A stretch of DNA of 64,000 nucleotides from Candidatus Micrarchaeota archaeon. GTDB lineage: Archaea; Micrarchaeota; Micrarchaeia; Micrarchaeales; CABMGC01. The stretch lies in assembly GCA_021852055.1 (NCBI GenBank), contig JAJZOD010000003.1:82846-146845 (forward strand), given 5' to 3'. The translations under genes and the position numbers were made by a program. Below are positions 21,120-43,515 of the stretch, one piece after another. The notes below the pieces were generated by a model. The model had not been told where the DNA came from, made no database searches, and saw nothing but the letters and a program-made list of their open reading frames with translations. Position 1 is the first letter of the stretch, and each line of letters starts with the position of its first letter.

Positions 21120-22238
21120 ATGCCTGCACTGGATAGGGTTAAAGATTTCTTTATAAAAAACATCTTGATACCTAAAGTATTCCGAATAGATATCCCAGGG
21201 TATGTGGCAGGCAAGTTTTATACGATAGAAGGGCAGTCGGTATTTGTAAGAAATGTTTTTGTTCCAGAAACGTTCTTCATTAAATTGGAGCATCTGGTGA
21301 TAAAAGAGATGGGTGCGGAAGGTGTGATTCAGTTATACCGCATCGGGAAGCAGTTTGGATACAGATTCTCACAGACGAACAGATTTCCACTGGACAATCC
21401 TGCCAAGGCTATTGTACTGGTTGCAAGCTTCTTTGAAACCTTATACGCAGATTCAATAAAATCCAAAGTAGATATACCTAACAAGATACTAGTACTGGAT
21501 ACTAAAGGATTAGTCATAACCCGAGAAAATGGCGGAGGTTACATTCTCACAATCGGCGGCTGTGCAGGAATCTGGGGTTATTTAGTGGGGGATTACTCTG
21601 TCGAGTGTTCTTCACGAAAGATAGGGAATGAAGAATACGAGTTGGTAAGTGCCGCTCCCAGCGTATTGGAGAAGGAACATCTTGATATTGTACGCTGTAT
21701 TGAGAAGCCGCAGAAGTTAAATGTAACAAGTTACAATTTATATAATCAGCCCCCTCTGGAGATTTCTGAAACGGCCCCCACCATAGATAAACTCATGACC
21801 GAGTCAGGCGTAATCTCTTATAAAGGAGGGAGGCTGCATTTATCAGTGTCAAATGTTAGATTTATTCCGATAGAGATATCCTTGCTGTCAGAAGTAAGCA
21901 TCCTTCCGGCAAAATTTGTTTCTAAGGCGGCTTATGATTCCTTCTACGAAATTGGTAAAAATACAACCAAACAGAAGGATCCATACTTGTTCATAGCTGA
22001 ATTGTTAACTGCATTTGGATTTGGAATAGTGGATGTCATAGTAAAAAAGAATAGCAGAGTCTTCAACATGAGAGGCTATCCCTATCTCACGGAAGCTTAT
22101 AAAAACACGGATTTCTCTTTCATAACAAGCATTTTGCGCGGATTTTTGGATGGAAATACACTGGAGACCCATTCTGCAGTTGGTGTATCCTCAAAAATAT
22201 CTGGTAACATGTTTATACTTACAATAGAGATTAAATGA
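21120..22238 (+). CDS. Uncharacterised 372-aa protein with two V4R-like (4-vinyl-reductase / hydrocarbon-binding) halves
   Basis: The N-terminal half reads ...VPETFFIKLEHLVIKEMGAEGVIQLYRIGKQFGYRF...GGCAGIWGYLVG. The C-terminal half reads ...FIPIEISLL...AAYDSFYEIGKN...ELLTAFGFG. This is pattern resemblance only. It starts 12 nt after kaiC-like and overlaps the next gene by ATGA. Confidence 0.4.
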   Translation: MPALDRVKDFFIKNILIPKVFRIDIPGYVAGKFYTIEGQSVFVRNVFVPETFFIKLEHLVIKEMGAEGVIQLYRIGKQFGYRFSQTNRFPLDNPAKAIVLVASFFETLYADSIKSKVDIPNKILVLDTKGLVITRENGGGYILTIGGCAGIWGYLVGDYSVECSSRKIGNEEYELVSAAPSVLEKEHLDIVRCIEKPQKLNVTSYNLYNQPPLEISETAPTIDKLMTESGVISYKGGRLHLSVSNVRFIPIEISLLSEVSILPAKFVSKAAYDSFYEIGKNTTKQKDPYLFIAELLTAFGFGIVDVIVKKNSRVFNMRGYPYLTEAYKNTDFSFITSILRGFLDGNTLETHSAVGVSSKISGNMFILTIEIK

Positions 22239-25296: not shown

Positions 25297-26307
25297 CTAA
25301 GCTTTTTTGATGTCGCTTTCAACCATCAGCTTCACAAGCTCCTCAAATGTGGTTTTAGGCTTCCATCCCAGCAGCCGTTTTGCCTTGCTGTAATCAGCGA
25401 GCATATTGTCGGCTTCAAGAGGCCTGAAGAACTTGCTGCTCACGCTTACTACCTCCCTGCCGTTGTAAAATCCCTTTTCGTTCATGTCATTGCCTTTCCA
25501 TTCTATGTTCATGCCGGCAACTTCAAAAGCGCCTTCAACAAAGTCCCTTACTGTATGCAGCACGCCTGTTCCAAGTACAAAATCATCTGGCTCCTTCTGC
25601 TGCATCATCAGCCACATGCCTTCAACATAATCCTTTGCATATCCCCAGTCTTTTCTTGCATTCATGTTGCCAAGTTCGAGTACCTCCCTGCTGCCATTAT
25701 GCATCCTTGCAGCTGCAAGGCTTATCTTTCTTGTGACGAATTCCGGCCCGCGCACCTCGCTCTCATGGTTGAAAAGTATTCCATTAGCTCCAAAGATTCC
25801 GTAAGCCTCGCGGTAATTCTTAGTAAGCCAGTAACCTGCAAGCTTGCTTATGGCGTAAGGGCTCCTTGGGTGAAATGGCGTGCTCTCATCCTGCGGGACC
25901 TTCTCTGCAGTGCCATAAAGTTCGCTTGTCCCAGCAAAATAAAACCTGCTTTTAGGAGAAACCTCCTTTACAGCATTTACTATGTTCAGCGTACCTATTA
26001 TGTTGGTTTCAAGCGTAGCCTGCGGATTATGGAAGCTGTAGCCTACGAAGCTCTGCGCTGCGAGGTGGTATATCTCATCCGGTTCAGTGGCCTTGATGAC
26101 GTTGTTTATGAACTGTGCATCCGTCACATCACCGTGCTCCAGCTTTATCCTCTGGACAGTCTCGCGCGGCAGCATTTCAAGAGTTCCGAGCCGCATGTCC
26201 CTGTTCCTTCTGACTATGCCTGTAACGTCATAGCCCTTATCAAGCAGAAACTGCGCCATGAAGTATCCGTCCTGGCCTGTTATCCCTGTAACTAAAGCTT
26301 TTTTCAT
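25297..26307 (-). CDS. gmd: GDP-mannose 4,6-dehydratase
   Basis: MKKALVTGITGQDGYFMAQFLLDKGYDVTGIVRR...SELYG...YAISK...NHESE.RG. Confidence 0.9.
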   Translation of the reverse strand: MKKALVTGITGQDGYFMAQFLLDKGYDVTGIVRRNRDMRLGTLEMLPRETVQRIKLEHGDVTDAQFINNVIKATEPDEIYHLAAQSFVGYSFHNPQATLETNIIGTLNIVNAVKEVSPKSRFYFAGTSELYGTAEKVPQDESTPFHPRSPYAISKLAGYWLTKNYREAYGIFGANGILFNHESEVRGPEFVTRKISLAAARMHNGSREVLELGNMNARKDWGYAKDYVEGMWLMMQQKEPDDFVLGTGVLHTVRDFVEGAFEVAGMNIEWKGNDMNEKGFYNGREVVSVSSKFFRPLEADNMLADYSKAKRLLGWKPKTTFEELVKLMVESDIKKA

Positions 26308-28280: not shown

Positions 28281-29537
28281 TCATGTGCCTGTTTTCCAGC
28301 TTGACAGATACTCTATCTGCTCTTCTGTAAGCTTGTCTATAGAGATTCCCATAGCTTCAAGTTGCAGCCTAGAGATGTCATCATCAATGCTTTCCGGAAG
28401 GAGCACAACTTCTGCACCTAGTTTGCCCTTGTTTTTAACAAGGTATTCGCATGCAAGCGCCTGCCCTGCAAAGCTTGTTGCCATGACTTCGCTTGGATGC
28501 CCTTCTGCAGCTGCAAGGTTCACCAATCTGCCTTCCCCACACACATAGATCTTCCTGTCACCGAGTCCGTATTCATGGAAGTTTGGGCGTATCTGCCTTT
28601 TGCTGAAGTCTTTCAGCGATGCCATGTCTATTTCAACATCAAAATGTCCCGAATTTGCAAGTATTGCGCCGTCTTTCATCTTTTTCATATGCTCAAGGCG
28701 TATAACATTCTTGTCTCCTGTGACTGTCACGAATATGTCTCCCAGGCCTGCCGCGTCATCCATCTTCATCACCCTGAACCCGTCAAGTGCCGCCTGGAGC
28801 GCCTTGAAGTTGTCTACCTCTGTAACTATGACGTTCGCGCCCATGCCTTTGGCCCGCAGTGACACTCCCTTGCCGCAGCTCCCGTAACCTGCTACCACAA
28901 AGGTTTTGCCTGATATGAGGGTTGCGCTTGCGCGGATCAGGCCGTCGAGCGTTGACTGCCCTGTGCCATAATAATTATCAAGGAGATGTTTTGTCTTGTT
29001 GTCGTTTACTGCAATCACTGGATACTTCAGTGCATCTGCCTTCTTCATTGAATGAAGCCTTATTATCCCTGTGGTAGTTTCTTCGCATCCGCCTATTATC
29101 GAGCTTATCTGGCTAGGATACTTCTCATGAATCCTTGTTACTAGGTCGCAGCCGTCGTCTATTGTAATTGTTGGTTTTTCCGATATGACTTTATCCAAAT
29201 ATCTGTAATAATCCTCTACACTCTCCCCCCTGTAACCGTAGACCTTGACTCCTTCCTCGGCCAGGGCCGCAGCCACGTCATCCTGCGTTGAGAGCGGGTT
29301 GCAGCTTGCTATTGCCACATCCGCTCCTCCAGCGCGCAGAGCCTTTACGAGCACCGCAGTTTCCTTTGTAAGGTGGAGCGCCATGCCTACTGTCATGCCT
29401 TTGAACGGCCTCTCCTTCGAAAATCTATCCCTGATCTTGGTCACTATCTCCATGCGTTTTTCAGCGAGCTCTATGTTGAGCCTGCCCTGTTCTGCCAGCT
29501 TAAGGTCTTTTACTTCGTATGTGCTGCCTTTGTCCAT
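28281..29537 (-). CDS. ahcY: Adenosylhomocysteinase
   Basis: 418 aa, with VAGYGSCGKG NAD-binding loop, DDGCDL and HFDVEID motifs. Confidence 0.9.
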   Translation of the reverse strand: MDKGSTYEVKDLKLAEQGRLNIELAEKRMEIVTKIRDRFSKERPFKGMTVGMALHLTKETAVLVKALRAGGADVAIASCNPLSTQDDVAAALAEEGVKVYGYRGESVEDYYRYLDKVISEKPTITIDDGCDLVTRIHEKYPSQISSIIGGCEETTTGIIRLHSMKKADALKYPVIAVNDNKTKHLLDNYYGTGQSTLDGLIRASATLISGKTFVVAGYGSCGKGVSLRAKGMGANVIVTEVDNFKALQAALDGFRVMKMDDAAGLGDIFVTVTGDKNVIRLEHMKKMKDGAILANSGHFDVEIDMASLKDFSKRQIRPNFHEYGLGDRKIYVCGEGRLVNLAAAEGHPSEVMATSFAGQALACEYLVKNKGKLGAEVVLLPESIDDDISRLQLEAMGISIDKLTEEQIEYLSSWKTGT

Positions 29538-29589: not shown

Positions 29590-30312
29590 TTATGTTTTCC
29601 TAAGTTTTGCATAATACTCGGACGCTTTTAGCAACGAATCAAAGCTTCCAACATCAGACCAGAAGCCCTCTACCATGACAACTCTCAAAAGTCCATCATT
29701 CATATACTCTTTGTTCACGTCAGTGAGTTCTAGTTCACCTCTTGGGCTTTCCTTAAGCTGCCTTATGCGCTTAAAAACGTCGTTGGGGTAAATGTATAAT
29801 CCCGTAAGAACAAATTTTGATTTTGGATTCTCTGGCTTCTCTTCAATACTTATGACTTTATCATCCTTATCAAGCTCAACGACGCCAAACAACGATGGAT
29901 TATCGCTTTCTTTTACAAATATATACGCATACTTATCGGTGAAAGCTCCCCCTGGAATCTCTGCGGAGCTAAATACATTATCGGCAAGTATCACAACTAC
30001 TTTCTCTTTTCCAAAGAATTCTTCTGTCTGCAACAGTGCATGGGCAGTACCGCGGGGTTTGTTTTGCACCCTATACGTTAATGTAAGTTCCGGTCTCGCG
30101 TATACCTCGAGAAATCTTATAAAATCCTCAAGATGATCCTCACCTGTGACTATACAGACATTATCCACGCCGGATTTCTTGAGCGTATCCAACGGATATG
30201 TCACCATTGGTCTATCAAATACAGGAAGCAAACTCTTGTTAGTTACATATGTAAGCGGTCGTAGCCGTTTGCCCTCGCCTCCGGCAAGTATGGTACCCCT
30301 TCTGTTTGCCAA
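29590..30312 (-). CDS. Sugar-1-phosphate nucleotidylyltransferase (short form, RmlA/GlmU-N-like)
   Basis: ILAGGEGKRLRPLT signature. Confidence 0.8.
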   Translation of the reverse strand: MANRRGTILAGGEGKRLRPLTYVTNKSLLPVFDRPMVTYPLDTLKKSGVDNVCIVTGEDHLEDFIRFLEVYARPELTLTYRVQNKPRGTAHALLQTEEFFGKEKVVVILADNVFSSAEIPGGAFTDKYAYIFVKESDNPSLFGVVELDKDDKVISIEEKPENPKSKFVLTGLYIYPNDVFKRIRQLKESPRGELELTDVNKEYMNDGLLRVVMVEGFWSDVGSFDSLLKASEYYAKLRKT

Positions 30313-30392: not shown

Positions 30393-31436
30393 ATGCAGAA
30401 ACTCTCTGTGCTCATAATGACTCGGAATAATACCAAGACAGCTATAAATCTAATTGAAGATCTGAAAGACATTGCAGACGAGTTTGTAATTATAGAAAGC
30501 AGTGAAGGAAAAGATAAAAATCTAATAAAGAAATATTCCTTAAAAAACAGAAAAGTCAGTATATACGATTCAGTAGCCCTTGGATATCAAGATCCATTGC
30601 GCATGTATGGTCTTAGCAAATGCGAAAACGAATGGGTTCTTCATCTGGATGTTGACGAGAGACTTTCATCTAGCCTAAAAACGGGACTTAAAAGTATGAT
30701 AAACACTCAAAAAGTGAGTGCATTCTCATTCAGAAGATACGAACACGTAGAAAACAATAACCATCGCAGGACTTCATTCTTCACTTGGCAGGTGCGTTTG
30801 TTTAAAAAGAGCAAGATAGTTTTCCATGGATTAATACACGAAGCCCCAATTATAAACGGCCATATCTATTATATAAAAGACAAAGAAAAATATGTCGAAC
30901 ATGTAGAAGAGTTCAAGGTATCCGGCCCGAGAGAGTATTCAATAATGCACAAGCTGGATAGATTATCCTATGCGGCATATAATGATGCCATGTTGGAATA
31001 CTTGGCAAAATTTACAAAAACTGACAAGAAGAAAATCAAAAAAACATTTGCAGGTAGAGTACTTATATCCCTAATTCTACTATATGAGCGGATAACCTTA
31101 AAGAAATATGACAAAGAGATAAGTAATTTTGACTATTTTTTTTATAATCTATTCAAGAGCGTAGGATACGCTATTATGATGAAAAGCCCTATGGCATTTA
31201 TAAGATCTTTCGAAAATGCAACATACGAGTCCCGGCGCATAAAAGAATGGAGGCGCGAGCCCGATGCCAAAGAACTATTTGAGTTATCTAAAATTATACG
31301 AAAAATCGGGATAATAAAGTTTCTAAATCTAGATAAGGAGGAAACTGTAAAAATAATATACAACAAATACAAAGGCAAAAAACAGGGGATATCCTTATTA
31401 CTTCATCTCCTTATTGAACAATATAAAAAACAATAA
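30393..31436 (+). CDS. Glycosyltransferase family 2 with a helical C-terminal extension
   Basis: LSVLIMTRNN... and an LDVDERL (DxD-like) motif. Confidence 0.65.
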   Translation: MQKLSVLIMTRNNTKTAINLIEDLKDIADEFVIIESSEGKDKNLIKKYSLKNRKVSIYDSVALGYQDPLRMYGLSKCENEWVLHLDVDERLSSSLKTGLKSMINTQKVSAFSFRRYEHVENNNHRRTSFFTWQVRLFKKSKIVFHGLIHEAPIINGHIYYIKDKEKYVEHVEEFKVSGPREYSIMHKLDRLSYAAYNDAMLEYLAKFTKTDKKKIKKTFAGRVLISLILLYERITLKKYDKEISNFDYFFYNLFKSVGYAIMMKSPMAFIRSFENATYESRRIKEWRREPDAKELFELSKIIRKIGIIKFLNLDKEETVKIIYNKYKGKKQGISLLLHLLIEQYKKQ

Positions 31437-31452
31437 AACAAACTTAGTAAAA

Positions 31453-32424
31453 TCAATTCAAAGAATGCAATGTCATTTCAGACCCCTTTTTTCTATATAT
31501 ATTATAGCCTTCAAAAATAGCCCGAAAGGTGACGCTAACTCTCCACAAGATTCTATCTTTGAGTCTAAGGCTTGATAATTTTCTTTGCCGGGTACTGCTC
31601 TCTATTGAGAAAATTGCGCTGAATAATATTATAAGTAGCGCCTCAAATCTCTTTACAAAACCAAAATTCTTGAAGATAAAATAAACCCAGTTTTTCTGGT
31701 TATTCTCAAAAAACCTGTCTCGTGCGCTCTTCTTCGGAGAATTGACATGCGTATAACCCTCCAAATGTGTCAGACTTACTCTGCCATCATACATTACTGA
31801 AAAACCGCTCTTCCTTGCTCTCACACAATAATCCGTATCCTCAAATCCAAATTTTAAATTTTCATCAAACAATCCAATTTTGTTTATGAGTTCCTTTTTC
31901 AATAAACACATAGCTGCAGTAGACGCCTCCACTTCTTCAATTTTATTATACTGACCTTTATCGATTTCACCCCTACCCCTGCTTCTGGGAGCAATGCCTA
32001 TTATCCCTCCTGCTTGTTGTATCCTACCTGTCGGATAACGCAGTTTGCACGTAAGTATTCCACAATGCTTATGACTTTCTGCTGTAACTACAAGTTCTCT
32101 CAACCAGTTCTTATTTTCAGCAAAAACGTCATTGCTAAAAAGAACCACGTAATCTGGGTTGTATTTGTGTATAGCATAAAAAATGCCCTTGTTGTTGACG
32201 TACGAAAAGTTATATACATTATTCTCTAACCGTAATAAATCACATTTTGCAGATTTTATGACTCGGAGTGAATCATCAGTAGAGCCATTGTCAACAACTA
32301 TAATTTTAAGATTGTTGTAATTTGTCTGTAGCAATCTTTTAAGGCTCTCCTGCAATATCCCTTTTCCGTTGAATTTCCTTTCCATGCCGTTATAGTTCAG
32401 CAAGATTATGGCGACTCTCTTCAT
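31453..32424 (-). CDS. Glycosyltransferase family 2
   Basis: VAIILLNYNG...VVDNGSTDDS...FGFEDTDYC. Confidence 0.8.
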   Translation of the reverse strand: MKRVAIILLNYNGMERKFNGKGILQESLKRLLQTNYNNLKIIVVDNGSTDDSLRVIKSAKCDLLRLENNVYNFSYVNNKGIFYAIHKYNPDYVVLFSNDVFAENKNWLRELVVTAESHKHCGILTCKLRYPTGRIQQAGGIIGIAPRSRGRGEIDKGQYNKIEEVEASTAAMCLLKKELINKIGLFDENLKFGFEDTDYCVRARKSGFSVMYDGRVSLTHLEGYTHVNSPKKSARDRFFENNQKNWVYFIFKNFGFVKRFEALLIILFSAIFSIESSTRQRKLSSLRLKDRILWRVSVTFRAIFEGYNIYRKKGSEMTLHSLN

Positions 32425-32495
32425 TATATCGTTACTGATTCTTCGCTAACATTTAAATATTTGGTAAGTCATCTATAAGTAAGTACGGTATAATT

Positions 32496-33752
32496 ATGGT
32501 CATAGCTAAAGAGATAAGTAGCTGTAGGATCTGTGGCTCAAAGGCACTTATAAGAATATTGTCGCTGGGCAACCAATGCGTTACTAACTTTCTCGATAAT
32601 TCAAACGAAGAGGTATACAAAGCACCCTTAGAGCTTGTATTATGTGATCCAAAATCCGGTGGGTGCGGTTTGCTGCAATTGAAGCACACATTTGATCATG
32701 ATCTATTATACAAAAAGTATTGGTATCAATCCGGCATAAGTACTACGATGGTCAGGGCGTTGTCCAATATAGTTGAAAGTGCAGAAGACATAGTAGTTCT
32801 AAAACCTAATGATATAGTCCTTGATATCGGGTCTAATGATGGTACCCTTCTAAAGCAGTATAAAAACAACGGAATAATTCGTATAGGGTTTGAGCCATCA
32901 AATCTGTGGCAGATAAGCAACAACGATGGCATAGAAGTAATCCACAATTACTTCAATTCAGCTGATTTTAATAGCCGATTCCCCTACAAGAAAGCAAAAA
33001 TTATCACAAGCATAGCTATGTTCTACGATTTGGAGAATCCCAGTCTGTTTGTTGAAAATATTAAAGAGTGCCTAGATTCTGACGGCTTATGGATTATACA
33101 GATGAATTATCTTGGCCTAATGTTAGAAAACAACACCTTTGATAATATAAGCCACGAGCATCTTGAATACTATTCTCTCGGAACGCTTGAGTATTTATTG
33201 AAAGCGCATAATCTTTCGGTGAAAGATGTATTGTTGAATGATGTCAATGGAGGCAGTTTTAGAATATATGTGACTCACAGCTCTTCCAAGCTTAGATTTC
33301 CTGAAGGGTCAGAATCCCGTATTACTGCCCAGAGAGAATACGAACGCTCTGCAGGATTCAATAATCCAGAGTCATATCACAAGTTTGCTGAGCGTATTAA
33401 AAACATCAAGAACCAACTTCTGCAATTTCTCAACTCTGAGAAGAATAATGGCAAGATCTCATATATTTATGGGGCGTCGACTCGTGGCCTTGTCCTTCTC
33501 CAATTCTGCGGTATAGATAATAAGCTAATAAAGTTCGCAACCGACAAGAATTCAGAAAAGTGGGGAAAATATATAGCAGGTACCGGTATTAAAATATTGC
33601 CAATTGATGAATATAGAAAAAATAAACCCGACTATTTATTGGTTTTGCCATATCAGTTTATAGACGAAATAGCCGAACAGGAAGCCAATTTTCTAGACGA
33701 TGGTGGGAAACTCTTAATAGCAATACCCTCACTAAAGATAATAAGTAAGTAG
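32496..33752 (+). CDS. NDP-hexose C-methyltransferase-like enzyme (N-terminal Zn ribbon + SAM MTase + C-terminal C-MTase domain)
   Basis: CRICGSKALIRILSLGNQ (Zn ribbon), LDIGSNDG (motif I), 418-aa architecture of the TylC3/Coq-like sugar C-methyltransferases. Confidence 0.65.
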   Translation: MVIAKEISSCRICGSKALIRILSLGNQCVTNFLDNSNEEVYKAPLELVLCDPKSGGCGLLQLKHTFDHDLLYKKYWYQSGISTTMVRALSNIVESAEDIVVLKPNDIVLDIGSNDGTLLKQYKNNGIIRIGFEPSNLWQISNNDGIEVIHNYFNSADFNSRFPYKKAKIITSIAMFYDLENPSLFVENIKECLDSDGLWIIQMNYLGLMLENNTFDNISHEHLEYYSLGTLEYLLKAHNLSVKDVLLNDVNGGSFRIYVTHSSSKLRFPEGSESRITAQREYERSAGFNNPESYHKFAERIKNIKNQLLQFLNSEKNNGKISYIYGASTRGLVLLQFCGIDNKLIKFATDKNSEKWGKYIAGTGIKILPIDEYRKNKPDYLLVLPYQFIDEIAEQEANFLDDGGKLLIAIPSLKIISK

Positions 33753-33762
33753 TTGATACTTT

Positions 33763-34731
33763 ATGAAAAAGATTTTGATAACTGGTGTAACAGGCTTCAT
33801 AGGCAGCAATCTGGCCAAGAATCTCACTATGCGTGGCTATGAAGTTATCGGTATAACCAAGTATTCATCGAGCAGGGACTCTGGGGCTCTTGCAGGATAT
33901 CTTGATGGTGTAAAAGTACTTACCTGTGATATAACTGATTTCCATTCCGTTTATCAAACTATCAGAAGCGTAAATCCGGATGCTGTAATACACCTGGCAG
34001 CACTCAGTGCTGTACACGGTTCATTCGAGAAGCCGATATTTTATACGCAGACGAACCTAATCGGCACTATGAACATAGTGCACAGCATTCTTGATCTTCC
34101 AGACTTCAAGTCAAAGAAATTATTATTCGCTTCCTCCGCGTTAGTTTACGGGATACAAGAAAATAAGGCAATAAATGAAGAAACTCCTCTGCTCCCGCTG
34201 AATCCATATTCTCTAACCAAAGCAACAATGGATTTATACTTAAGAAACATTAACAAAATATATGGGCTGAAAACTACCTCTATACGATTTGCTAATACCT
34301 ACGGGAGAACACTGAACAACGAGTTCTTTATAGAACATACCATATCCTCAATGCTGAAAAATGAGAAGATATACTTGGGCAATCCTGATACTGTAAAAGA
34401 TTATATGTACGTTTCTGATCATGTCAATATATACATAAATGCCTTAGAAAGCGACAAAGCAGGGGGAGAAGCATTCAATGCAGGAACCGGTGTGGGTGTA
34501 ACAAATAAAGAAATAGTATTCAAGCTTGCTGATATAATAGGCTATGATAAGGGCAATATCATACTCGGTCAGTTTCCTCCAGGATATCCTAGCAGACCAC
34601 AAGCTGCAAACGAACCATTTATAATACTTGACATAACAAAATCAAAAAGAATGTTAGGTTGGGATCCGAGGGTAAGCCTTGACGAAGGTCTCAAAATGTG
34701 CGTCAAGTTTTGGAAAGAGAGAATAAAGTGA
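33763..34731 (+). CDS. NAD-dependent nucleotide-sugar epimerase/dehydratase/reductase (extended SDR)
   Basis: ITGVTGFIGSNL and the catalytic YSLTK (YxxxK). Confidence 0.85.
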   Translation: MKKILITGVTGFIGSNLAKNLTMRGYEVIGITKYSSSRDSGALAGYLDGVKVLTCDITDFHSVYQTIRSVNPDAVIHLAALSAVHGSFEKPIFYTQTNLIGTMNIVHSILDLPDFKSKKLLFASSALVYGIQENKAINEETPLLPLNPYSLTKATMDLYLRNINKIYGLKTTSIRFANTYGRTLNNEFFIEHTISSMLKNEKIYLGNPDTVKDYMYVSDHVNIYINALESDKAGGEAFNAGTGVGVTNKEIVFKLADIIGYDKGNIILGQFPPGYPSRPQAANEPFIILDITKSKRMLGWDPRVSLDEGLKMCVKFWKERIK

Positions 34732-34733
34732 AA

Positions 34734-35450
34734 CTAAATCTGCATCCACGTCTGTGGTATTTTTTCAGCCTCCTTCACGTCCTTCGGTGTGTTAATGCTT
34801 ATCCATTCCTCATCTCCTGAAATCATTTTGCCTTTTATCTTTCCGCTATTTATCAATTCAGCAAATGTTGTATTCTCTATGGATCCGCTGCTTGGTATAA
34901 AATCTATTATTTTCTTATCGAATATGTAAACGCCTATGCTTATCGGTATGGCATTAAGTTTCTTTCCATACTCAAAGCTTGTTACTGTATTTGAAGAATC
35001 GAATTTGACTACGCTGAATCTACATGGGAACGGTGACAAAGCCATGGTGACTATCGGCTTATATTTAAAATATAGTGCTTTCATATTCTCAAGATTAAGG
35101 TTTGTTAGTTCATCTCCATTCATTGCAACAAACGCATCATCTTTCACAAACCGTTTTATTGCAAGTCCAAAAGCCTCAGCGGTACCTCCCTCTATAGTAT
35201 GTTCGCTTATGTCGACTTCTAATCCGAAGTTGTCGTTCTCCTTCATATACTCGTAAATTTTTTCTTTTTTGTATGACACCCCCAAGACCAAATGCGTTAT
35301 ACCATATTTCTTGAGCCATCTAATTATCCAATAAAGGAGTGGTTTTCCACTGACTTCTACGAGTGTTTTCGGCATGTCTTTTGTGAGCGGGGCAAGTCTG
35401 GATCCTTCACCACCAACTATTACGACTGCTGTTCTTATCTCAAAAATCAT
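34734..35450 (-). CDS. Sugar-phosphate nucleotidylyltransferase
   Basis: VVIVGGEGSRLAPLTKDMPKTLVEV. Confidence 0.8.
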   Translation of the reverse strand: MIFEIRTAVVIVGGEGSRLAPLTKDMPKTLVEVSGKPLLYWIIRWLKKYGITHLVLGVSYKKEKIYEYMKENDNFGLEVDISEHTIEGGTAEAFGLAIKRFVKDDAFVAMNGDELTNLNLENMKALYFKYKPIVTMALSPFPCRFSVVKFDSSNTVTSFEYGKKLNAIPISIGVYIFDKKIIDFIPSSGSIENTTFAELINSGKIKGKMISGDEEWISINTPKDVKEAEKIPQTWMQI

Positions 35451-36528
35451 GACAAATCGCCTTGATTATTCTAATACCAGCCTTTCCATCTCCAAAAGGC
35501 ATACCCCAGTCTGTATTCTTCCTTAACATTTTTGTTCCAAATTTATTTATTAGTTTTGGATTTGTTCCTACAAGTGCATTAGAGCCAACTTCGATAGTTT
35601 CTGGTCTTTCCGTATCGTCCCTCAAAGTTATGCATGGCACTTTGAGTATGCATGCTTCCTCCTGCAGACCACCTGAGTCAGTTAATATAAGACTTGCATT
35701 TGCTTCAAGTTGTAAGAATTCGATGTACCCTACTGGCTCTATGGTTTTTATGCATTCTGGCAACTTCAGCCTTAATCTACTGATCATCTTTAACGTCCTA
35801 GGATGTGCTGGAAACACTATTGGCATCTTAACATTTTTATGCAGAAGCGTAATGCCCTTCAGTATACTGCTAAGTCGTTTCTTGTTATCAACGTTCTCCT
35901 GTCTATGCATTGTCAGGAGCATGTAATTTTTTCTGACTAATTCTAGCTCTCTCAATGCAGACGCACGCCTTTTAGCGATTTTTATGTTATTAAGTACCGC
36001 ATCTACTACTGTGTTTCCTGTTACAAGGATCTTCTTAGGATCTATACCTTCTTTGATAAGTTGTCGCCTTGCATTCTTCGTAGGCGCAAATAGATAGTCG
36101 GATATGTGATCCACTAATATCCTATTGAGCTCCTCTGGCATATACCTATTAAAGCTCCTTATCCCTGCCTCTACGTGACCTATTCTTATGTGGAGCTTTC
36201 CGGCAGCCAGTGAAGCTGCGAGCACTGTATTCGTATCACCTTGCACCAAAACAACATCTGGTTTCTCCTTCATTAATACCTGTTCTATTTTTACTAACAT
36301 CCTGCCTGTCTGGTCTCCCTGAGTACCGGATCCTATCTTCAAGTTGTATTTTGGCTTTTTAAGCCCAAGTTCCTTGAAGAATATACCATCCATATTATAT
36401 GAATAATGTTGCCCTGTATGCAGCACGAAGTGGTTCAATCTCTGCTTAACTAACTCTTTTATTATAGGGCTCATTTTTACTATCTCTGGTCTTGTACCAA
36501 CAACTATGCAAACTTTCATACCATCCAT
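35440..36528 (-). CDS. wecB: UDP-N-acetylglucosamine 2-epimerase (non-hydrolysing)
   Basis: VGTRPEIVKMSPI...VQGDTNT...HVEAGIRSF...SDSGGLQEE. Confidence 0.9.
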   Translation of the reverse strand: MDGMKVCIVVGTRPEIVKMSPIIKELVKQRLNHFVLHTGQHYSYNMDGIFFKELGLKKPKYNLKIGSGTQGDQTGRMLVKIEQVLMKEKPDVVLVQGDTNTVLAASLAAGKLHIRIGHVEAGIRSFNRYMPEELNRILVDHISDYLFAPTKNARRQLIKEGIDPKKILVTGNTVVDAVLNNIKIAKRRASALRELELVRKNYMLLTMHRQENVDNKKRLSSILKGITLLHKNVKMPIVFPAHPRTLKMISRLRLKLPECIKTIEPVGYIEFLQLEANASLILTDSGGLQEEACILKVPCITLRDDTERPETIEVGSNALVGTNPKLINKFGTKMLRKNTDWGMPFGDGKAGIRIIKAICHDF

Positions 36529-37599
36529 CTACAATATTGATTTATATGCCTGTATGGTCTTCTTTGCTACAGAGTCCCATGTGAAGTTCTCAAGTATGTG
36601 ATTCTGAAGCTTGTCACTTCTTGGACGTTCATACGCAGCTACTATAGCCTTTCTTATGCTACTTATGCTGTAAGGATCAAGATAGTCTGCAAATTTGCCG
36701 AAGTATTCGTCTGTGCCACCTATTTTTGTTATTGCAATGTTCGCACCGGCAAGGCCTCCTTCAAGTGCCGAGAGACCCGGAGTCTCATAATAACTTGGCA
36801 AAACAACCACCTTTGCGGCCTTATAAGCGGACTTAAGCAATCGTGAAGCATGATCCATAGGTCCTATGAACTTGACCTTCTTATTCGAAATGGCCTTACA
36901 TGATTTGTAATATGCCTCTTCCGCCACAGAACCTACTATCACGAGTTCCGTGTCGAGTCCTGAAGTCTCAAACGCCTTTATCAGCTTTAACAGGTTCTTC
37001 CTCCGTTCGATTCTTCCAACAAACAGTATGAAGTTCTCAATACCAAACTTCCTCCTGAATAACTCCCTATTTCCATCTTTGAATTCATTATCTACCCCAT
37101 TCGGGACAACTGAAAATCTATTGTGCCTTATATCAAAAACGCTCTTTATAATTTTTCTCTCTTCATCGGTATTTGGGAGCACCATATCACTGGTCTCGAA
37201 CAGAAGTTTCAGATATGATGGTCCGTACATTGGTATGCTGTTACCTATTCTTATTGCCATCTTGTTTATCGGGTTTATCTTGAGCACATTCAATGCGCGT
37301 GTTTTGTATACTGGAAGCCAGAAAACCGAAGACACAACGACCTTTGTGTTCTTCTTCGCCTGTTCAGCCAGCGAGTAAGCATCCATGGGGAAAACAGACG
37401 GAGCAAATATATGCAAAATATCATATTTGGAAATATCCTTTACACGCTTATCCAAGAGTTTTACGTTTACTCCTAGTTTCTTCAAGCTCTCTATGGTTCT
37501 CTCAGCCTGTACATCGCCACCTCCAATCATATTAAAGGAGTATGATTTCGTAGCTACAAGAACATTCATAGATACACGCAATTCAAATTTGTTGTGCAA
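36529..37599 (-). CDS. Glycosyltransferase, GT4 family
   Basis: GT-B fold pattern, with C-terminal ...VVLPSYYETPGLSALEGGLAGANI. Confidence 0.75.
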   Translation of the reverse strand: MHNKFELRVSMNVLVATKSYSFNMIGGGDVQAERTIESLKKLGVNVKLLDKRVKDISKYDILHIFAPSVFPMDAYSLAEQAKKNTKVVVSSVFWLPVYKTRALNVLKINPINKMAIRIGNSIPMYGPSYLKLLFETSDMVLPNTDEERKIIKSVFDIRHNRFSVVPNGVDNEFKDGNRELFRRKFGIENFILFVGRIERRKNLLKLIKAFETSGLDTELVIVGSVAEEAYYKSCKAISNKKVKFIGPMDHASRLLKSAYKAAKVVVLPSYYETPGLSALEGGLAGANIAITKIGGTDEYFGKFADYLDPYSISSIRKAIVAAYERPRSDKLQNHILENFTWDSVAKKTIQAYKSIL

Positions 37600-37713
37600 G
37601 ATTATAATTTATACTCTTTCAACAGTTCCTTATAAATCCCTATCCTAAATATTGATAGCTGCAGATACCGAGCACCATAAGTTATTAGATTCTACTTTTC
37701 TAATACCTTTGAT

Positions 37714-38778
37714 ATGATGAGAGTTGCTTTTTTAGGGCTTAAAGGAGAGTTTGATCCGGAACAAAATGGAATATCGCATCGATACACCAGAGAACTTTAC
37801 TCAAGCGTATCAAAAGCAAAATTCAAGAACAAAGATGTGCAAATAGACGCTGTGGAAATACCACTAAACCCAATTCTAGGGGCAGGTTTATCGTTTTTTG
37901 CAAATACTCTTATCAAAAACTTTGAAGGATACGACATTATACACAATATAAACTTCAAGCCTTGCATTCCTATTCTAAAAAGGAAAGCGGTATTTCTAAC
38001 AACCGCCCTTGATTTTCAACCTCTGCTTTACCCAGATCTAAAGCGGAAATTTAGTGTGAATCTTAAGACCTGGCTTTGGATGCGATTGGTAGTCGAGTTC
38101 GGTCTTAAAATGGCACTAAAATCAGACTACATGATAACGATATCAACGCAAACAAAGGAAGAAGCAATAATCTTGGGATATGACAAGAATAAAATTTTTG
38201 TTGTAAATATCGGGATAAGTCCAAAGTTTATAAGGACTCCAATAAAAAGTAACAAAAATAAGAAGTTTCTTGTGGGATATATCGGTAGCTTTGCACCACA
38301 CAAGAACACGATAATGTCTATAGCTGCATTTAAAAAAATACCTGACAAAGATATGCGCTTTGAAATTTGGGGGCATTCAAAATACTGGTATGAAACACTT
38401 AAAAAAAGCGCAAGCGATGATAAACGTATAGTATTCAAGGGCTTCGCTCCAGAAAAAGATATAGTTAGCATATACGACTCGTTCGATGTTTATATTCATC
38501 CTGTTCTACACTGTGGGTTTGAAATGGAGATTCTAGAAGCGCAGGCACGTGGACTTCCGGTCGTGATATACAAAAAAGGAAAAGTCCCAAAGGAAGTGCG
38601 AAAATATTGTCTAGAAGCAGAAGATGTTGATCAAATGGCCAAGATTCTTATAGATTTGAAGGAAAATGGTTACAGCGAGAAGCTAAGAAAAGAAGCCATG
38701 TTATATGCAAGAAGCTTTACCTGGGAAAAATGTGCGAATGAGACAATAAACGTTTATAGAAAGATAATAAATCATTAA
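37714..38778 (+). CDS. Glycosyltransferase, GT4 family
   Basis: C-terminal ...YIHPVLHCGFEMEILEAQARGLPVV (E-x7-E). Confidence 0.7.
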   Translation: MMRVAFLGLKGEFDPEQNGISHRYTRELYSSVSKAKFKNKDVQIDAVEIPLNPILGAGLSFFANTLIKNFEGYDIIHNINFKPCIPILKRKAVFLTTALDFQPLLYPDLKRKFSVNLKTWLWMRLVVEFGLKMALKSDYMITISTQTKEEAIILGYDKNKIFVVNIGISPKFIRTPIKSNKNKKFLVGYIGSFAPHKNTIMSIAAFKKIPDKDMRFEIWGHSKYWYETLKKSASDDKRIVFKGFAPEKDIVSIYDSFDVYIHPVLHCGFEMEILEAQARGLPVVIYKKGKVPKEVRKYCLEAEDVDQMAKILIDLKENGYSEKLRKEAMLYARSFTWEKCANETINVYRKIINH

Positions 38779-38811
38779 AGCAATATATACATTGCTTATG
38801 TCAGTGGTTAA

Positions 38812-39993
38812 ATGGAGAGAATATATATCGGGGTCGGAGATCTGCAACTCACAAGAGAGGATAAGGATGCAGTGAACAAAGTACTAGATAGTAATAGACT
38901 ATCATACGGGCCTGTATCAAAAGAGTTTGAAAGAGAATTTGCCAAATTTCACGACTCTAAATTTGCGATATTTACTAATAGTGGGACTAGTTCGTTGCAT
39001 ATCGCACTTGCAGCACTGAAAGAGAAATACAATTGGGAATCCGGCGATGAAGTCATAGTTCCTGCAGTAACGTTCATCGCTACCTCTAATGTAGTTCTTC
39101 ACAACAACATGATGCCTGTATTTGTTGATGTTGAAGAAAATACATTTAATATAGATCCTCAGAAGATTGAAGAAGCCATAACTTCTAAAACAAGAGCAAT
39201 AATTCCAGTACATCTTTTGGGACTTCCCGCAGATATGGATCCTATATTAAAAATAGCCAAAAAGTACAATCTTCATGTAATAGAAGATTCCGCAGAGACA
39301 ATGTTTGCTAAGTATAAAGGAAAAACAGTTGGTTCTTTCGGAGATATAGGCTGTTTTTCCACTTATATCGCGCACTACATAGTTACTGGCGTGGGCGGAC
39401 TTAATACGACTTCAGATCCCCAGATCGCAACAATGTTACGAAGTCTAATGAATCACGGAAGGGACTCAATATACATAAGTATAGATGATGATAATATTGA
39501 TGACGAGGAAAAATTCAAGGAGGTAATAAGCAAGAGATTCAAGTTTGTTACTTTAGGGCATAGTTTTAGATCTACGGAGATTGAAGCAGCTCTTGGCCTT
39601 TCCCAACTAAAAAGAAAAGACCAGATAATAACTAGGAGGAAGTATGTCGCCGCAAGATATCTCAAAGGCCTCGAAGATCTATCTGAGCATCTTCAATTCC
39701 AGCAAACGCCTCTGGACAGAGAGAATGTTTATATGCTCTTCGGGATAGTGCTAAAAGATGGTGATAAGACTGAACTCATTAACTATCTTGAAGAAAATAA
39801 TATTGAGACAAGAGATCTCCTGCCGCTGTTGAACCAACCAGTCTACAAACGGATCTTTGGTGACAAAGAGAACGATTATCCAGTCGCTAAGAAACTAAAT
39901 AGAAGCGGATTTTATATCGGATGTCATCAATATTTGAGCGATGAAGACATAGACTACGTAATCAATAAGTTCCATCAGTTCTTCAAAAGGTAA
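38812..39993 (+). CDS. DegT/DnrJ/EryC1/StrS-fold PLP/PMP enzyme with His in place of the Schiff-base Lys (ColD/E1-like sugar 3-dehydratase candidate)
   Basis: GDEVIVPAVTFIATSN, IIPVHLLG and EDSAETMFA motifs. The canonical FSF...K..T.GEGG reads FSTYIAHYIVTGVGG here. Confidence 0.7.
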   Translation: MERIYIGVGDLQLTREDKDAVNKVLDSNRLSYGPVSKEFEREFAKFHDSKFAIFTNSGTSSLHIALAALKEKYNWESGDEVIVPAVTFIATSNVVLHNNMMPVFVDVEENTFNIDPQKIEEAITSKTRAIIPVHLLGLPADMDPILKIAKKYNLHVIEDSAETMFAKYKGKTVGSFGDIGCFSTYIAHYIVTGVGGLNTTSDPQIATMLRSLMNHGRDSIYISIDDDNIDDEEKFKEVISKRFKFVTLGHSFRSTEIEAALGLSQLKRKDQIITRRKYVAARYLKGLEDLSEHLQFQQTPLDRENVYMLFGIVLKDGDKTELINYLEENNIETRDLLPLLNQPVYKRIFGDKENDYPVAKKLNRSGFYIGCHQYLSDEDIDYVINKFHQFFKR

Positions 39994-39997
39994 GCGT

Positions 39998-41299
39998 ATG
40001 CAACCAAAAAGAGAACTTGCGGTTATATGGTTCGGTCCTATATACGGGACCGGAGGCTACAGTTCAGTTTCAAGGGCCTATATAATGGGTTTGATTAAGG
40101 CAGGCGTAAAAATAAAAGTCTTGAACTACGGAGACAACGAAAAGGACAAACTGAGCACTAAAGTCCGGAAAACTCTTGAGAGCCACGAGGGCACTGTGAT
40201 AAGAAACTACGATAAAAAGATTCTAGTCCTTCATCAGACCCCAGATAACGCATCGGGAATAACCTTTAGCGGGATTGATTATACGATATGTTTGACTATA
40301 TTCGAAACAGACAAGATTCCTAAAAACTGGGTAGGCATATGTAACAGCAAACGGATTAACGAGGTATGGGTCCCAACTAAATTTAATATAGAAACCTTCT
40401 CAGAATCAGGTGTAAAGAAAGAAAAACTTAGGATTCTACATTATGGATTAGATGCAAGCAAGTACAAGCCAAAGTCATTATCACAGAATAAAGTCTTTCG
40501 CATACTTTACATAGCAGATTTGACTGAAAGGAAAAACATACCGCTGCTGATAAAAGCATTTAACGAGGAGTTTTGCGGCAAAGAAAATATCGAGCTTTTT
40601 TTGCATATAACTAGCAACAATGTCTTGGCTATTGAAGAATTTGTCAAGATCAATGCGGAACAAATAGAAAGCAGCCACATAACACTAAGCACACAAAAAT
40701 TATCCGAGAAAAAGATACACGAACTAATAAAGTCAGCAGACCTTTACATTTCTGTAGATCGGGCGAACGGTTGGGGGATGCCTTGCATGGAAGCGATGGC
40801 TATGGGGGGCTTAGCCGCTACAGTGAATTGGAGTGGATCTACAGAGTTTATGGATAAAACAAATAGCCTCCTGCTAAATCCAAATAGACTTGAAAGAGCA
40901 AGTCCTGAATCAACGCTCACAAGCCCTTTATACATAGGACACAAGTGGGCGCATGTTGAAATTGGCGAAATTAGGAGAGTCTTAAGATATGCGCATGCTA
41001 ATTATAATAAAACCAAGGATATCAGAAAGAAAGCATTAAACGACATAAAAACGAGGTTTAGCTCAGATATTGTAACAAAAGAGATGATACGCGCACTGAA
41101 CTCTGTAGATGTCTCCAATAAAGCTGGATGTGATATGGTGTTAAAACCCTATTCTAAAAACAAAATAGGCTTAAACGCTGTAAGAAATAACTTCAGATTC
41201 AACCTAAATTACTTATTAGAGTATCATTCAGCTAGATTCTTTCTTAGGACGATAAATTCTATAAAAACGAAAGCAATCAAAATACTGAGCCCCAAATAA
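39998..41299 (+). CDS. Glycosyltransferase, GT4-like
   Basis: GT-B pattern with ...YISVDRANGWGMPCMEAMAMGGLAA. Confidence 0.6.
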   Translation: MQPKRELAVIWFGPIYGTGGYSSVSRAYIMGLIKAGVKIKVLNYGDNEKDKLSTKVRKTLESHEGTVIRNYDKKILVLHQTPDNASGITFSGIDYTICLTIFETDKIPKNWVGICNSKRINEVWVPTKFNIETFSESGVKKEKLRILHYGLDASKYKPKSLSQNKVFRILYIADLTERKNIPLLIKAFNEEFCGKENIELFLHITSNNVLAIEEFVKINAEQIESSHITLSTQKLSEKKIHELIKSADLYISVDRANGWGMPCMEAMAMGGLAATVNWSGSTEFMDKTNSLLLNPNRLERASPESTLTSPLYIGHKWAHVEIGEIRRVLRYAHANYNKTKDIRKKALNDIKTRFSSDIVTKEMIRALNSVDVSNKAGCDMVLKPYSKNKIGLNAVRNNFRFNLNYLLEYHSARFFLRTINSIKTKAIKILSPK

Positions 41300-42318: not shown

Positions 42319-43515
42319 TCAGAATGTCCTGTATTTACCAAGCGCTATATTGTTTGTAAACTCTCCTATATTGTCTAGAAATCCATCTGCAATGTACGCA
42401 GCTTTAGGTCTGAGCGCTTCAAACTCCTTCTTGCCTGCTACTATGTTGATATTAAGGTTGTGCGGCTCGCTTATAGGCTTGCCTATCTGCGACAATATTG
42501 CAATATCGCACTCCTTAATGCCAGGATACTCTGATGTAATCTGCTTTGCGAGCTCTGTTGCAAGTATGTTGTATATCTTTCCTATGTGGCTTACTGGATT
42601 CTTTCCTGCAGCAGCCTCAAGGCTCATGTGCCTGAACGGGGTTATGAGGCCATTCACCCTGTTTCCTCTGCCAACGGAGCCATCATCGCCTGCCTCGCAG
42701 CTAAGCCCTGTTTTGGTTATATACACTTCCCCACCCTCTTCCGGATCTCCAGTATTAATGTGCACCTTCACTATTTTGTTGGTTGACTTGCGCGCATTTT
42801 TTATTATATCCTGCGCTATCTTCGCCTTGTATGCTTTGTACTCTTCCAGATCCTTCACATTCTTCGCTACAAAGGCTATCGCAACAGTAAGCGTTATTGC
42901 GTCATTCTCACGCATGCCCATTACCTTTATGTCCTCGCCTACTGCAGGAACCTTTTTTTTGTATTCTTTCGAGTTCAGGTAGTTCTCTGTTGCAAGAACC
43001 AGCCTTTCTGTATCAGTAAACGGCGCAAATCCTATGCCGAATGATGTGTCGTTTGCCAGCGGCACCTTGCTGCCCCTGCTGAAAATGTGCCCAAGATCTG
43101 CGCTACCTTCAGCTACCTTGGGCCGTATCAACACTTCGTCATCGACTTCCAGGAACCTCGTATTCTCTTTAAGGTACTTCCTGGCAGTCTCCTCTGCAAT
43201 GCCGTTCACGTCAATCTCGCGGCCGTTTGTGCCCCTGGATGCCCTGCCGGTTACTATAACTTCTATCCTTTTTGTTATGATCCCGTGTCCGAAACCCACC
43301 CTTGATGCACCGCCTATTATGAGACCCTTGTCAACATTATGGTGCAGTATTGACCCAAACTCTTCAATATACCTTTTTGATAGTGAAACACTTGTTGCAT
43401 CAACAATTCCATCTATAAGGCTGTCAGGATGCCCAAGCCCCTTCCTCTCTACATATTCGGTGCCCTGTTCGCTAACCGGAACCACATCAAGCCTGCCTAC
43501 TGATATATTCGACAT
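42319..43515 (-). CDS. mat: Archaeal-type S-adenosylmethionine synthetase
   Basis: ERKGLGHPDSLIDGI, and the ~400-aa length of archaeal MAT. Confidence 0.9.
   Translation of the reverse strand: MSNISVGRLDVVPVSEQGTEYVERKGLGHPDSLIDGIVDATSVSLSKRYIEEFGSILHHNVDKGLIIGGASRVGFGHGIITKRIEVIVTGRASRGTNGREIDVNGIAEETARKYLKENTRFLEVDDEVLIRPKVAEGSADLGHIFSRGSKVPLANDTSFGIGFAPFTDTERLVLATENYLNSKEYKKKVPAVGEDIKVMGMRENDAITLTVAIAFVAKNVKDLEEYKAYKAKIAQDIIKNARKSTNKIVKVHINTGDPEEGGEVYITKTGLSCEAGDDGSVGRGNRVNGLITPFRHMSLEAAAGKNPVSHIGKIYNILATELAKQITSEYPGIKECDIAILSQIGKPISEPHNLNINIVAGKKEFEALRPKAAYIADGFLDNIGEFTNNIALGKYRTF

Follow-up and report, generated by a model that had tools for sequence, protein, structure and literature searches.

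A 64,000-nucleotide stretch of the genome of a Candidatus Micrarchaeota archaeon (GenBank assembly GCA_021852055.1, contig JAJZOD010000003.1, positions 82,846 to 146,845 of the forward strand), referred to here as the window, encodes a DegT-family protein, His-DegT, in which a histidine occupies the place of the lysine that forms a Schiff base with pyridoxal 5'-phosphate (PLP) in the sugar aminotransferases of this family. We consider it probable, at about 0.6, that His-DegT is a pyridoxamine 5'-phosphate (PMP)-dependent nucleotide-sugar 3-dehydratase acting in the manner of ColD, free of an iron-sulfur (Fe-S) cluster, with GDP-4-keto-6-deoxy-D-mannose as its likeliest substrate. The broader prediction, C3 deoxygenation of a nucleoside diphosphate (NDP)-linked 4-keto-6-deoxyhexose, is a solid one by homology; the choice of GDP-4-keto-6-deoxymannose is moderately supported, as the best-supported substrate for the whole clade of relatives and the best guess for His-DegT itself. 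Known 3-dehydratases have the aminotransferase fold with the catalytic lysine replaced by a histidine that acts as an acid/base; a four-cysteine [2Fe-2S] motif is present in E1 and SpnQ and not in ColD, and PMP is regenerated with glutamate in ColD, whereas E1 and SpnQ need reductases (PMC8987622).

Histidine at the catalytic position, insertion, and phylogeny

The DegT fold proposed in the initial annotation of this DNA was borne out: residues 14-387 match the Pfam DegT_DnrJ_EryC1 profile (PF01041; 342.5 bits, E = 4e-102), and the AF2 model (pLDDT, 90.9) has template modelling (TM) scores of 0.86-0.88 against GDP-perosamine synthase, E1, and ColD. The same annotation had read a histidine in place of the PLP lysine, and this too is what the alignments give. 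In the FSTYIAHYIVTGVGG motif, whose first residue is residue 182, HMMER and MAFFT place His188 opposite the Schiff-base lysine of Caulobacter GDP-perosamine synthase ("fsffgnK"; phmmer, PDB sequences), and the MAFFT column that holds His188 also holds His188 of ColD, His220 of E1 (RfbH), and Lys186 of the GDP-perosamine synthase PerA. For these comparisons, the ColD sequence was 100% identical to 2gms_A, and Salmonella RfbH and Escherichia coli O157 PerA were taken from annotated plasmid records. When residues 170-297 were searched alone, E1 (3bcx) and ColD (2gms) ranked at the top with the same correspondence of histidines, and the H220K mutant of E1 (3bb8) puts its lysine in the His188 column. 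The alignment register used earlier is therefore correct, and no lysine falls at the catalytic position. His-DegT thus lacks the active-site lysine that the DegT/DnrJ/EryC1/StrS sugar aminotransferases need for the internal aldimine with PLP, and has a histidine there instead.

The histidine is encoded by CAC, which is at least two base changes away from a lysine codon, so a single-base error is excluded, and 14 contigs from independent assemblies (NCBI, ENA, and Logan) carry the identical protein. We searched 1.84 billion representatives exhaustively with HMMER; 149 of the best 150 matches, all 50%-identity representatives, align across position 188, where 119 carry His, 28 Lys, 1 Cys, and 1 Gln, with Lys appearing only in representatives below ~37% identity. 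The closest cluster representatives (61-86% identity; archaea and bacteria) keep FSTY[VI]AH in 120 of 120 cases, and the named hosts among them are Micrarchaeota, Caldisphaera, Gemmataceae, and a "Baltobacteraceae" metagenome-assembled genome (MAG). By alignment, the cofactor-site residues vary little or not at all: Asp159, the aspartate assigned to the pyridine nitrogen, Ser183, and the phosphate loop S57-G58-T59. Two proteins nested in the His clade, P0182 (Cys; FSTYCGCVV) and P0213 (Gln; FSTAGSQPV), have a residue other than His at the catalytic position.

An insertion after the H-G-R-D motif is common to His-DegT, ColD, and E1 and is absent from perosamine synthase. In E1 this insertion carries the cysteines of the [2Fe-2S] site, spaced C-x-C-x3-C-x4-C (GRDCYCAPGCDNTC); no four-cysteine motif was found in His-DegT, which has only Cys181 and Cys371, neither of them in the insertion. 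With only two cysteines there can be no E1-type [2Fe-2S] site, and the ColD mode is expected. Among the 49 larger window open reading frames (ORFs) scanned, 38 of them with a Pfam match, there was no FNR- or ferredoxin-reductase-like protein that might act as an E3-type reductase. Lacking the cysteine cluster and any reductase partner among the scanned ORFs, His-DegT was ruled out as an enzyme of the E1-type mechanism.

Whole-protein hidden Markov model (HMM) scores and the Foldseek ranking were tried as classifiers and discarded, since they fail to separate dehydratases from aminotransferases. His-DegT is 31% identical to ColD, 31% to RfbH, and 36% to PerA (MAFFT); the sugar aminotransferase 7b0m scores 201.5 bits, just above GDP-perosamine synthase at 200.6 bits; and the NCBIfam profiles PseC (257 bits) and RfbH (248 bits) both score below their cutoffs. 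Trees were therefore used for classification. In a 16-sequence neighbor-joining (NJ) tree, the query family joins a His-type enzyme from a Solidesulfovibrio magneticus plasmid at 94%, ColD and RfbH join next (51%), and PerA lies outside (99%). In a 118-sequence NJ tree, a single clade takes in 93 of 93 His-type sequences, among them ColD and RfbH; the 84 sequences that combine His with a residue other than Glu at position 194 make up a subclade inside it, and Lys-type sequences fall outside the His clade in the NJ trees. Bootstrapping with motif columns 182-196 removed gave moderate support, 140/200, for the split between His and Lys types and 189/200 for the query subclade. The grouping with ColD and E1 for which the initial annotation had proposed a DegT-family phylogeny as a check was thus recovered, and on these trees His-DegT belongs to a distinct, well-supported lineage within the predicted 3-dehydratase clade. 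The ColD/E1-like signature claimed earlier stands (histidine, insertion, and clade); in its expected mode His-DegT is ColD-like and not E1-like, and at 31% identity and in a separate subclade it is not an orthologue of ColD either. A tblastn search of 72,556 plasmids, used only as a source of comparators (RfbH, PerA, and the S. magneticus His-type homologue), returned no close relative, all matches being below 37% identity.

The query subclade is also marked by residue 194. In the 118-sequence alignment, the Glu of G-E-G-G is present in 22 of 23 Lys-type and 9 of 9 ColD/E1-type sequences, whereas all 84 His-bearing members of the subclade have another residue (62 Val and 13 Ile), so that non-Glu at 194 co-varies with membership. 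The His188/Val194 subclade is spread over DPANN and TACK archaea, Candidate Phyla Radiation (CPR) bacteria, and others, and offers a natural experiment on the G-E-G-G glutamate and on the Ala or Ser that precedes the catalytic histidine.

Related loci, substrate, and competing explanations

The neighbourhoods of 34 related loci from genomes and metagenomes (given below by L numbers; representative proteins have P numbers) were surveyed. A true GDP-mannose 4,6-dehydratase (Gmd) is encoded within 10 kb of the His-type gene in 15 of the 34 and lies immediately upstream in L005, L020, L024, L030, and L033; CDP-glucose-type 4,6-dehydratases are neighbours at 4 loci and a dTDP type at 1. L013, L017, and L023 carry a cassette of gmd, a GDP-fucose-synthase (GFS)-like short-chain dehydrogenase/reductase (SDR), and the His-type gene, in which gmd scores 509-515 bits (L013 and L017 scanned) and the SDR 293-302 bits, short of the Fcl cutoff, as a ColC-like paralogue would be. 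By analogy, this cassette would be a colitose-type pathway. ColC-type (GFS-like) SDRs adjoin orthologues of His-DegT in L013, L017, L022, L023, and L028, with scores of 243-390 bits against the Fcl model. L004 has the order gmd, RmlC-like cupin, His-DegT, Lys-type DegT, and its cupin recalls the cupin C5-epimerase that partners the Campylobacter jejuni C3-dehydratase (PMC10440746). In natural fusions, the His domain is joined to an N-terminal GFS-like SDR (four representatives), to a C-terminal family 4 glycosyltransferase (GT4; P0143), to an N-terminal GT2 plus methyltransferase, or to a DPM1-like GT2 fragment of ~240 residues, which supports a coupling to reductase/epimerase and sugar transfer steps. 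The fusion and related representatives are P0143, P0148, P0151, P0158, P0159, P0162, P0144, P0145, P0152, P0164, and L022:784-2679, and one His-DegT copy is interrupted by a HINT/intein domain.

GDP-4-keto-6-deoxymannose is the only candidate substrate that the window itself can supply: Gmd and one further protein, SDR322, are the only extended SDRs detected in it, Gmd is the sole 4,6-dehydratase, and there is no CDP- or dTDP-glucose 4,6-dehydratase in the 64 kb. If His-DegT is indeed a ColD-type 3-dehydratase, ordinary ColD chemistry is expected. Because there is no active-site lysine, the cofactor would be held non-covalently; transamination with an amino acid, L-glutamate in the case of ColD, would load it as PMP, which would form a ketimine with the C4 keto group of the NDP-4-keto-6-deoxyhexose. 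His188 would then take the C4' proton from PMP and assist loss of the 3-hydroxyl, giving a 3,4-ene intermediate whose hydrolysis would yield PLP, ammonia, and NDP-4-keto-3,6-dideoxyhexose. In such a pathway, Gmd would make GDP-4-keto-6-deoxy-D-mannose, reduction at C4 would come next, for which SDR322 is the window's sole candidate, and the GT4s flanking His-DegT might put the 3,6-dideoxyhexose onto a surface glycan.

Several observations weigh against this account. The window gmd is 12.5 kb from His-DegT, on the opposite strand and in DNA of native GC content outside the gene island that holds His-DegT. Most of the closest relatives (70-80% identity) have no gmd within 10 kb: among members of the window's subclade with at least 70% identity, Gmd adjoins the His-type gene in L005, is 3 kb from it in L035, and is otherwise not found inside the 10-kb limit. 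L034 and L042 have a divergent operon with a true glucose-1-phosphate cytidylyltransferase and a CDP-glucose 4,6-dehydratase instead, L043 shows only a His-DegT-GT4 pair, and shared ancestry keeps the related loci from counting as independent samples. The best match of SDR322 is a UDP-hexose 4-epimerase (4zrm, 142 bits), and SDR322 may not be the pathway reductase. At the level of the protein, identity to ColD and E1 is slightly lower than to GDP-perosamine synthase, whole-protein HMM and fold scores do not split dehydratases from aminotransferases, His-DegT has Ala187 where ColD has Ser187, its subclade swaps the otherwise invariant G-E-G-G glutamate for Val or Ile, and we found no characterised member of that subclade in the literature. 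The initial annotation's view that the Gmd product is the substrate thus holds insofar as true gmd genes stand beside orthologues in many genomes; the distance of the window gmd and the other contexts of the closest relatives make it a best guess for His-DegT rather than a demonstrated substrate.

The same 3-dehydratase chemistry might act on another substrate, either CDP-4-keto-6-deoxy-D-glucose, as in E1, or a 4-keto-6-deoxyhexose linked to dTDP or UDP and supplied by another part of the genome. We regard this as unlikely, although the nearest relatives on long contigs, L034 (79%) and L042 (80%), lie beside genes for a true RfbF (329 bits; cutoff, 300) and a CDP-glucose 4,6-dehydratase (382 bits; cutoff, 278), and the position of the window gmd outside the island of His-DegT is in keeping with it. 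RfbF and RfbG genes adjoin the His-type gene in L013 and L023 as well, but there it is contiguous and co-directional with gmd and the GFS-like SDR gene, and rfbFG are on the opposite strand. Gmd is by far the commonest 4,6-dehydratase neighbour (15 loci against 4 CDP and 1 dTDP), the window has no dehydratase of the other two types, and the nearest relatives in structure and sequence outside the clade are the GDP-sugar enzymes PerA and ColD.

It is quite unlikely, in our judgement, that the His188/Val194 subclade forms a separate line of Fe-S-free sugar deoxygenases with chemistry or partners unlike those of ColD, such as another amino donor or another fate of the intermediate; its chemistry may differ because the otherwise invariant glutamate is lost. 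In the window, such an enzyme, together with Gmd, the TylC3-type 3-C-methyltransferase, and the GalE/Rmd-like SDR322, might make a GDP-linked C-methyl-branched 3,6-dideoxyhexose for an archaeal surface glycan. We know of no description of such a sugar. The initial annotation had also considered a C-methylated product; the idea comes down to co-location only, since the methyltransferase gene has no homologue in any other related locus examined, and as a conserved pathway partner the enzyme was rejected as unsupported. A paper on Coxiella virenose contained nothing about C-methyltransferases that act on GDP-sugars.

A lysine-less PMP enzyme with another outcome, either a C4 aminotransferase, a side activity that SpnQ is reported to show when its reductase is missing, or some other PMP/PLP lyase or isomerase whose altered chemistry is marked by the change of Glu194 to Val, appears very unlikely. 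SpnQ, which has the histidine, does transaminate with PLP and glutamate, but wild-type ColD and E1 do not under the SpnQ conditions (PMC8987622). Overall similarity to GDP-perosamine synthase is as high as to ColD, a conserved Glu-to-Val/Ile change sets the subclade apart, and two clade members have Cys or Gln in place of the histidine; against this, a separate Lys-type DegT aminotransferase stands beside the His enzyme in L004, L025, L027, and L035, which argues for distinct roles, and the cassette of gmd, GFS-like SDR, and His-type genes mirrors the colitose pathway. Finally, decay of an aminotransferase into an inactive relic, or an artefact of sequencing or assembly at the lysine codon, would explain the missing canonical lysine but is effectively refuted, as family-wide conservation of the histidine with intact cofactor residues is incompatible with decay, and the codon and the identical independent copies likewise rule out sequencing error or a pseudogene.

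The glycan island and other features of the window

The window is part of an archaeal chromosome, with genes for archaeal AdoMet synthetase, deoxyhypusine synthase, DUF2070, FtsZ, and primase. His-DegT is encoded in a low-GC island together with a GT-A-like ORF, a GT2, the C-methyltransferase, SDR322, a nucleotidyltransferase, WecB, and three GT4 genes (Table 1); the drop in GC suggests horizontal acquisition. The closest homologues of the island genes are in Micrarchaeota, and the island (~30.4-41.3 kb) is flanked by genes for S-adenosylhomocysteine hydrolase and an archaeal S-adenosylmethionine synthetase (28281-29537 and 42319-43515). Gmd, the extended SDR, the sugar C-methyltransferase, and the two nucleotidyltransferases listed in the initial annotation were found as it had described them.

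Table 1. Coordinates of His-DegT, its marker residues, and the pathway genes discussed, numbered within the window.
Feature	Position	Strand	Remarks
His-DegT, predicted PMP-dependent Fe-S-free NDP-4-keto-6-deoxyhexose 3-dehydratase	38812-39993	+	393 aa; ATG start
His188, in place of the Schiff-base Lys	39373-39375	+	Codon CAC
Val194 of T-G-V-G-G	39391-39393	+	Aminotransferases, ColD, and E1 carry Glu (G-E-G-G)
Insertion, residues 218-241 (DSIYISIDDDNIDDEEKFKEVISK)	39463-39534	+	~24 residues after HGRD; no Cys
Low-GC glycan-synthesis island	30393-41299		GC 0.36-0.40 vs 0.41-0.47 in flanks
GT4 glycosyltransferase, 354 aa	37714-38778	+	Pfam Glycos_transf_1; directly upstream of His-DegT, 33-bp gap
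GT4 glycosyltransferase, 433 aa	39998-41299	+	Pfam; start 4 bp past the His-DegT stop codon
Extended SDR (SDR322), 322 aa, candidate C4-ketoreductase/epimerase	33763-34731	+	
Gmd, GDP-mannose 4,6-dehydratase	25297-26307	-	TIGR01472 430 bits vs cutoff 415
Sugar-1-phosphate nucleotidylyltransferase, 238 aa	34734-35450	-	man1P_GTase 111 bits, HddC 96 bits, all below cutoffs
Nucleotidyltransferase	29590-30312		
TylC3/TcaB9-type sugar 3-C-methyltransferase, 418 aa	32496-33752	+	Pfam Methyltransf_13, _23, _14

Two kinds of partner are conserved in the window's subclade: an SDR related to SDR322 (35-41%) and orthologues of the two GT4s that flank His-DegT. Orthologues of the upstream GT4 (37-42% identity) adjoin the His-type gene in L007/L034, L008, L010, L029, L042, and L043, and those of the downstream GT4 directly follow it in L005/L006 (39-41%) and L031 (35%). 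SDR322 homologues (35-41% identity) are next to or near it in L029, L034, L035, L036, L042, and L044. SDR322 itself has the motifs SSALVYG and YSLTK, without the 4,6-dehydratase glutamate, and scores 98 bits to Rmd (2pk3), against 142 bits to the epimerase 4zrm, and 59 bits to Fcl; the SSALVYG motif without the catalytic glutamate rules out the window copy as a feeding 4,6-dehydratase. Relatives at 36-41% in L034, L035, and L036 read TSEEYG, a Gmd/Rmd-like motif with the glutamate; if they are orthologues of SDR322, the glutamate is dispensable, which would argue for a reductase/epimerase rather than a dehydratase role. The best matches of the 34734-35450 nucleotidylyltransferase include mannose-1-phosphate guanylyltransferases, and the C-methyltransferase scores 178.6 bits against D-mycarose 3-C-methyltransferase (PDB 4rv9).

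Some loci and ORFs stand out in their own right. The operon beside the closest Micrarchaeota orthologues (L034:4553-8958 and L042:4535-8936, both minus strand) encodes RfbF, an SDR, a transketolase split into N and C halves, and CDP-glucose 4,6-dehydratase, and the S. magneticus plasmid (L040:1997-7902) has thiamine-pyrophosphate-enzyme and transketolase genes, a GFS-like SDR gene, and a His-type DegT with a four-cysteine insertion; these gene sets suggest branched-chain or two-carbon-extended deoxysugar pathways. At L035:548-7332, an STT3/AglB-type oligosaccharyltransferase, an unknown gene, a GT4, a His-DegT (76% identical), and an SDR follow one another, an arrangement that ties the module to N-glycosylation of proteins; although labelled Baltobacteraceae, the contig looks archaeal. 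In the island, the 347-aa ORF at 30393-31436 (plus strand) has no Pfam or NCBIfam match and a GT-A-like N terminus (LSVLIMTRNN ... DVDE), and with orthologues (37-39%) in the Micrarchaeota loci L007, L008, and L010 it travels with the His-DegT module. Elsewhere in the window, a 1,558-aa ORF (62-4738, plus strand; GC, 0.50) has no Pfam match at E <= 1e-5, and neither of two ORFs on the plus strand (16644-18092, 482 aa, and 21120-22238, 372 aa), which have a GT2 gene (18189-19823) and a KaiC-like gene in their vicinity, has a Pfam match.

Possible archaeal 3,6-dideoxy sugars and the known enzymes

Named relatives of His-DegT are annotated as "DegT aminotransferase," "perosamine synthetase," or "dTDP-4-amino-4,6-dideoxygalactose transaminase," yet they lack the aminotransferase lysine. 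If they are re-annotated as 3-dehydratases, a 3,6-dideoxy sugar takes the place of an amino sugar as the predicted product in many genomes. The prevailing view treats 3,6-dideoxyhexoses as rare sugars of bacterial O antigens. A 2020 analysis of 303 complete archaeal genomes found the L-colitose pathway absent from TACK archaea (PMC7725333), and the His-DegT family is frequent in archaeal MAGs. The frequent association of the clade with gmd and a fucose-synthase-like reductase suggests that 3,6-dideoxy sugars are common in uncultivated archaea and CPR bacteria. The initial annotation had expected such a sugar to be unusual in archaea, which agrees, as far as we found, with the glycans described experimentally; in genomic terms the expectation fails, as the clade is common among MAGs of DPANN and other archaea. 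The re-annotation of His-DegT is well founded, and it offers a lead to 3,6-dideoxy sugars in the glycans of archaea.

Four known enzymes frame the comparison. SpnQ, the dTDP-4-keto-2,6-dideoxyglucose 3-dehydrase of spinosyn synthesis, is a His-type 3-dehydratase of the same superfamily, which we compared by its published description only; it differs in its Fe-S motif and in needing ferredoxin or flavodoxin reductases (PMC8987622). E1 (AscC/DdhC/RfbH; CDP-6-deoxy-L-threo-D-glycero-4-hexulose 3-dehydrase; PDB 3BCX) belongs to the same His clade at 31% identity and shares with His-DegT the Ala-His dyad (A219-H220 and A187-H188) and the G-R-D motif before the common insertion; it differs in the [2Fe-2S] cysteines of that insertion, which in His-DegT has none, in its need for the E3 reductase, and in its CDP-sugar substrate. 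GDP-perosamine synthase (PerA/RfbE; PDB 3BN1 and 3DR4) is among the best sequence matches (35-36% identity) and is the best fold match (TM, 0.87-0.88), and it uses the very substrate proposed for His-DegT, but it is a true aminotransferase with Lys186, G-E-G-G, and no insertion.

ColD (WbdK), the GDP-4-keto-6-deoxy-D-mannose 3-dehydratase of E. coli O55:H7 (PDB 2GMS, 3B8X, 2R0T, and 3GR9), differs from His-DegT in several ways. With 31% identity and a separate subclade (189/200), His-DegT is not orthologous to characterised ColD. ColD has Ser187 and the glutamate of G-E-G-G where His-DegT has Ala187 and Val194, and the window offers no ColC-like partner, only the GalE/Rmd-like SDR322. Both S187N and H188K are needed to convert ColD into an aminotransferase. 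The entry 3GR9 is, by its record title, the S187N/H188K double mutant. Characterised ColD-type enzymes from E. coli O55, Yersinia pseudotuberculosis, and C. jejuni HS:5 and HS:11 share 62-67% identity and use PLP and L-glutamate (PMC10440746). His-DegT is like ColD, on the other hand, in its DegT fold and His188, in the insertion after the H-G motif without an Fe-S cluster, in its probable substrate, GDP-4-keto-6-deoxymannose, judged from the Gmd neighbourhoods, and in orthologue loci that bring in a GFS-like (ColC-like) SDR or, in L004, a cupin epimerase as in C. jejuni.

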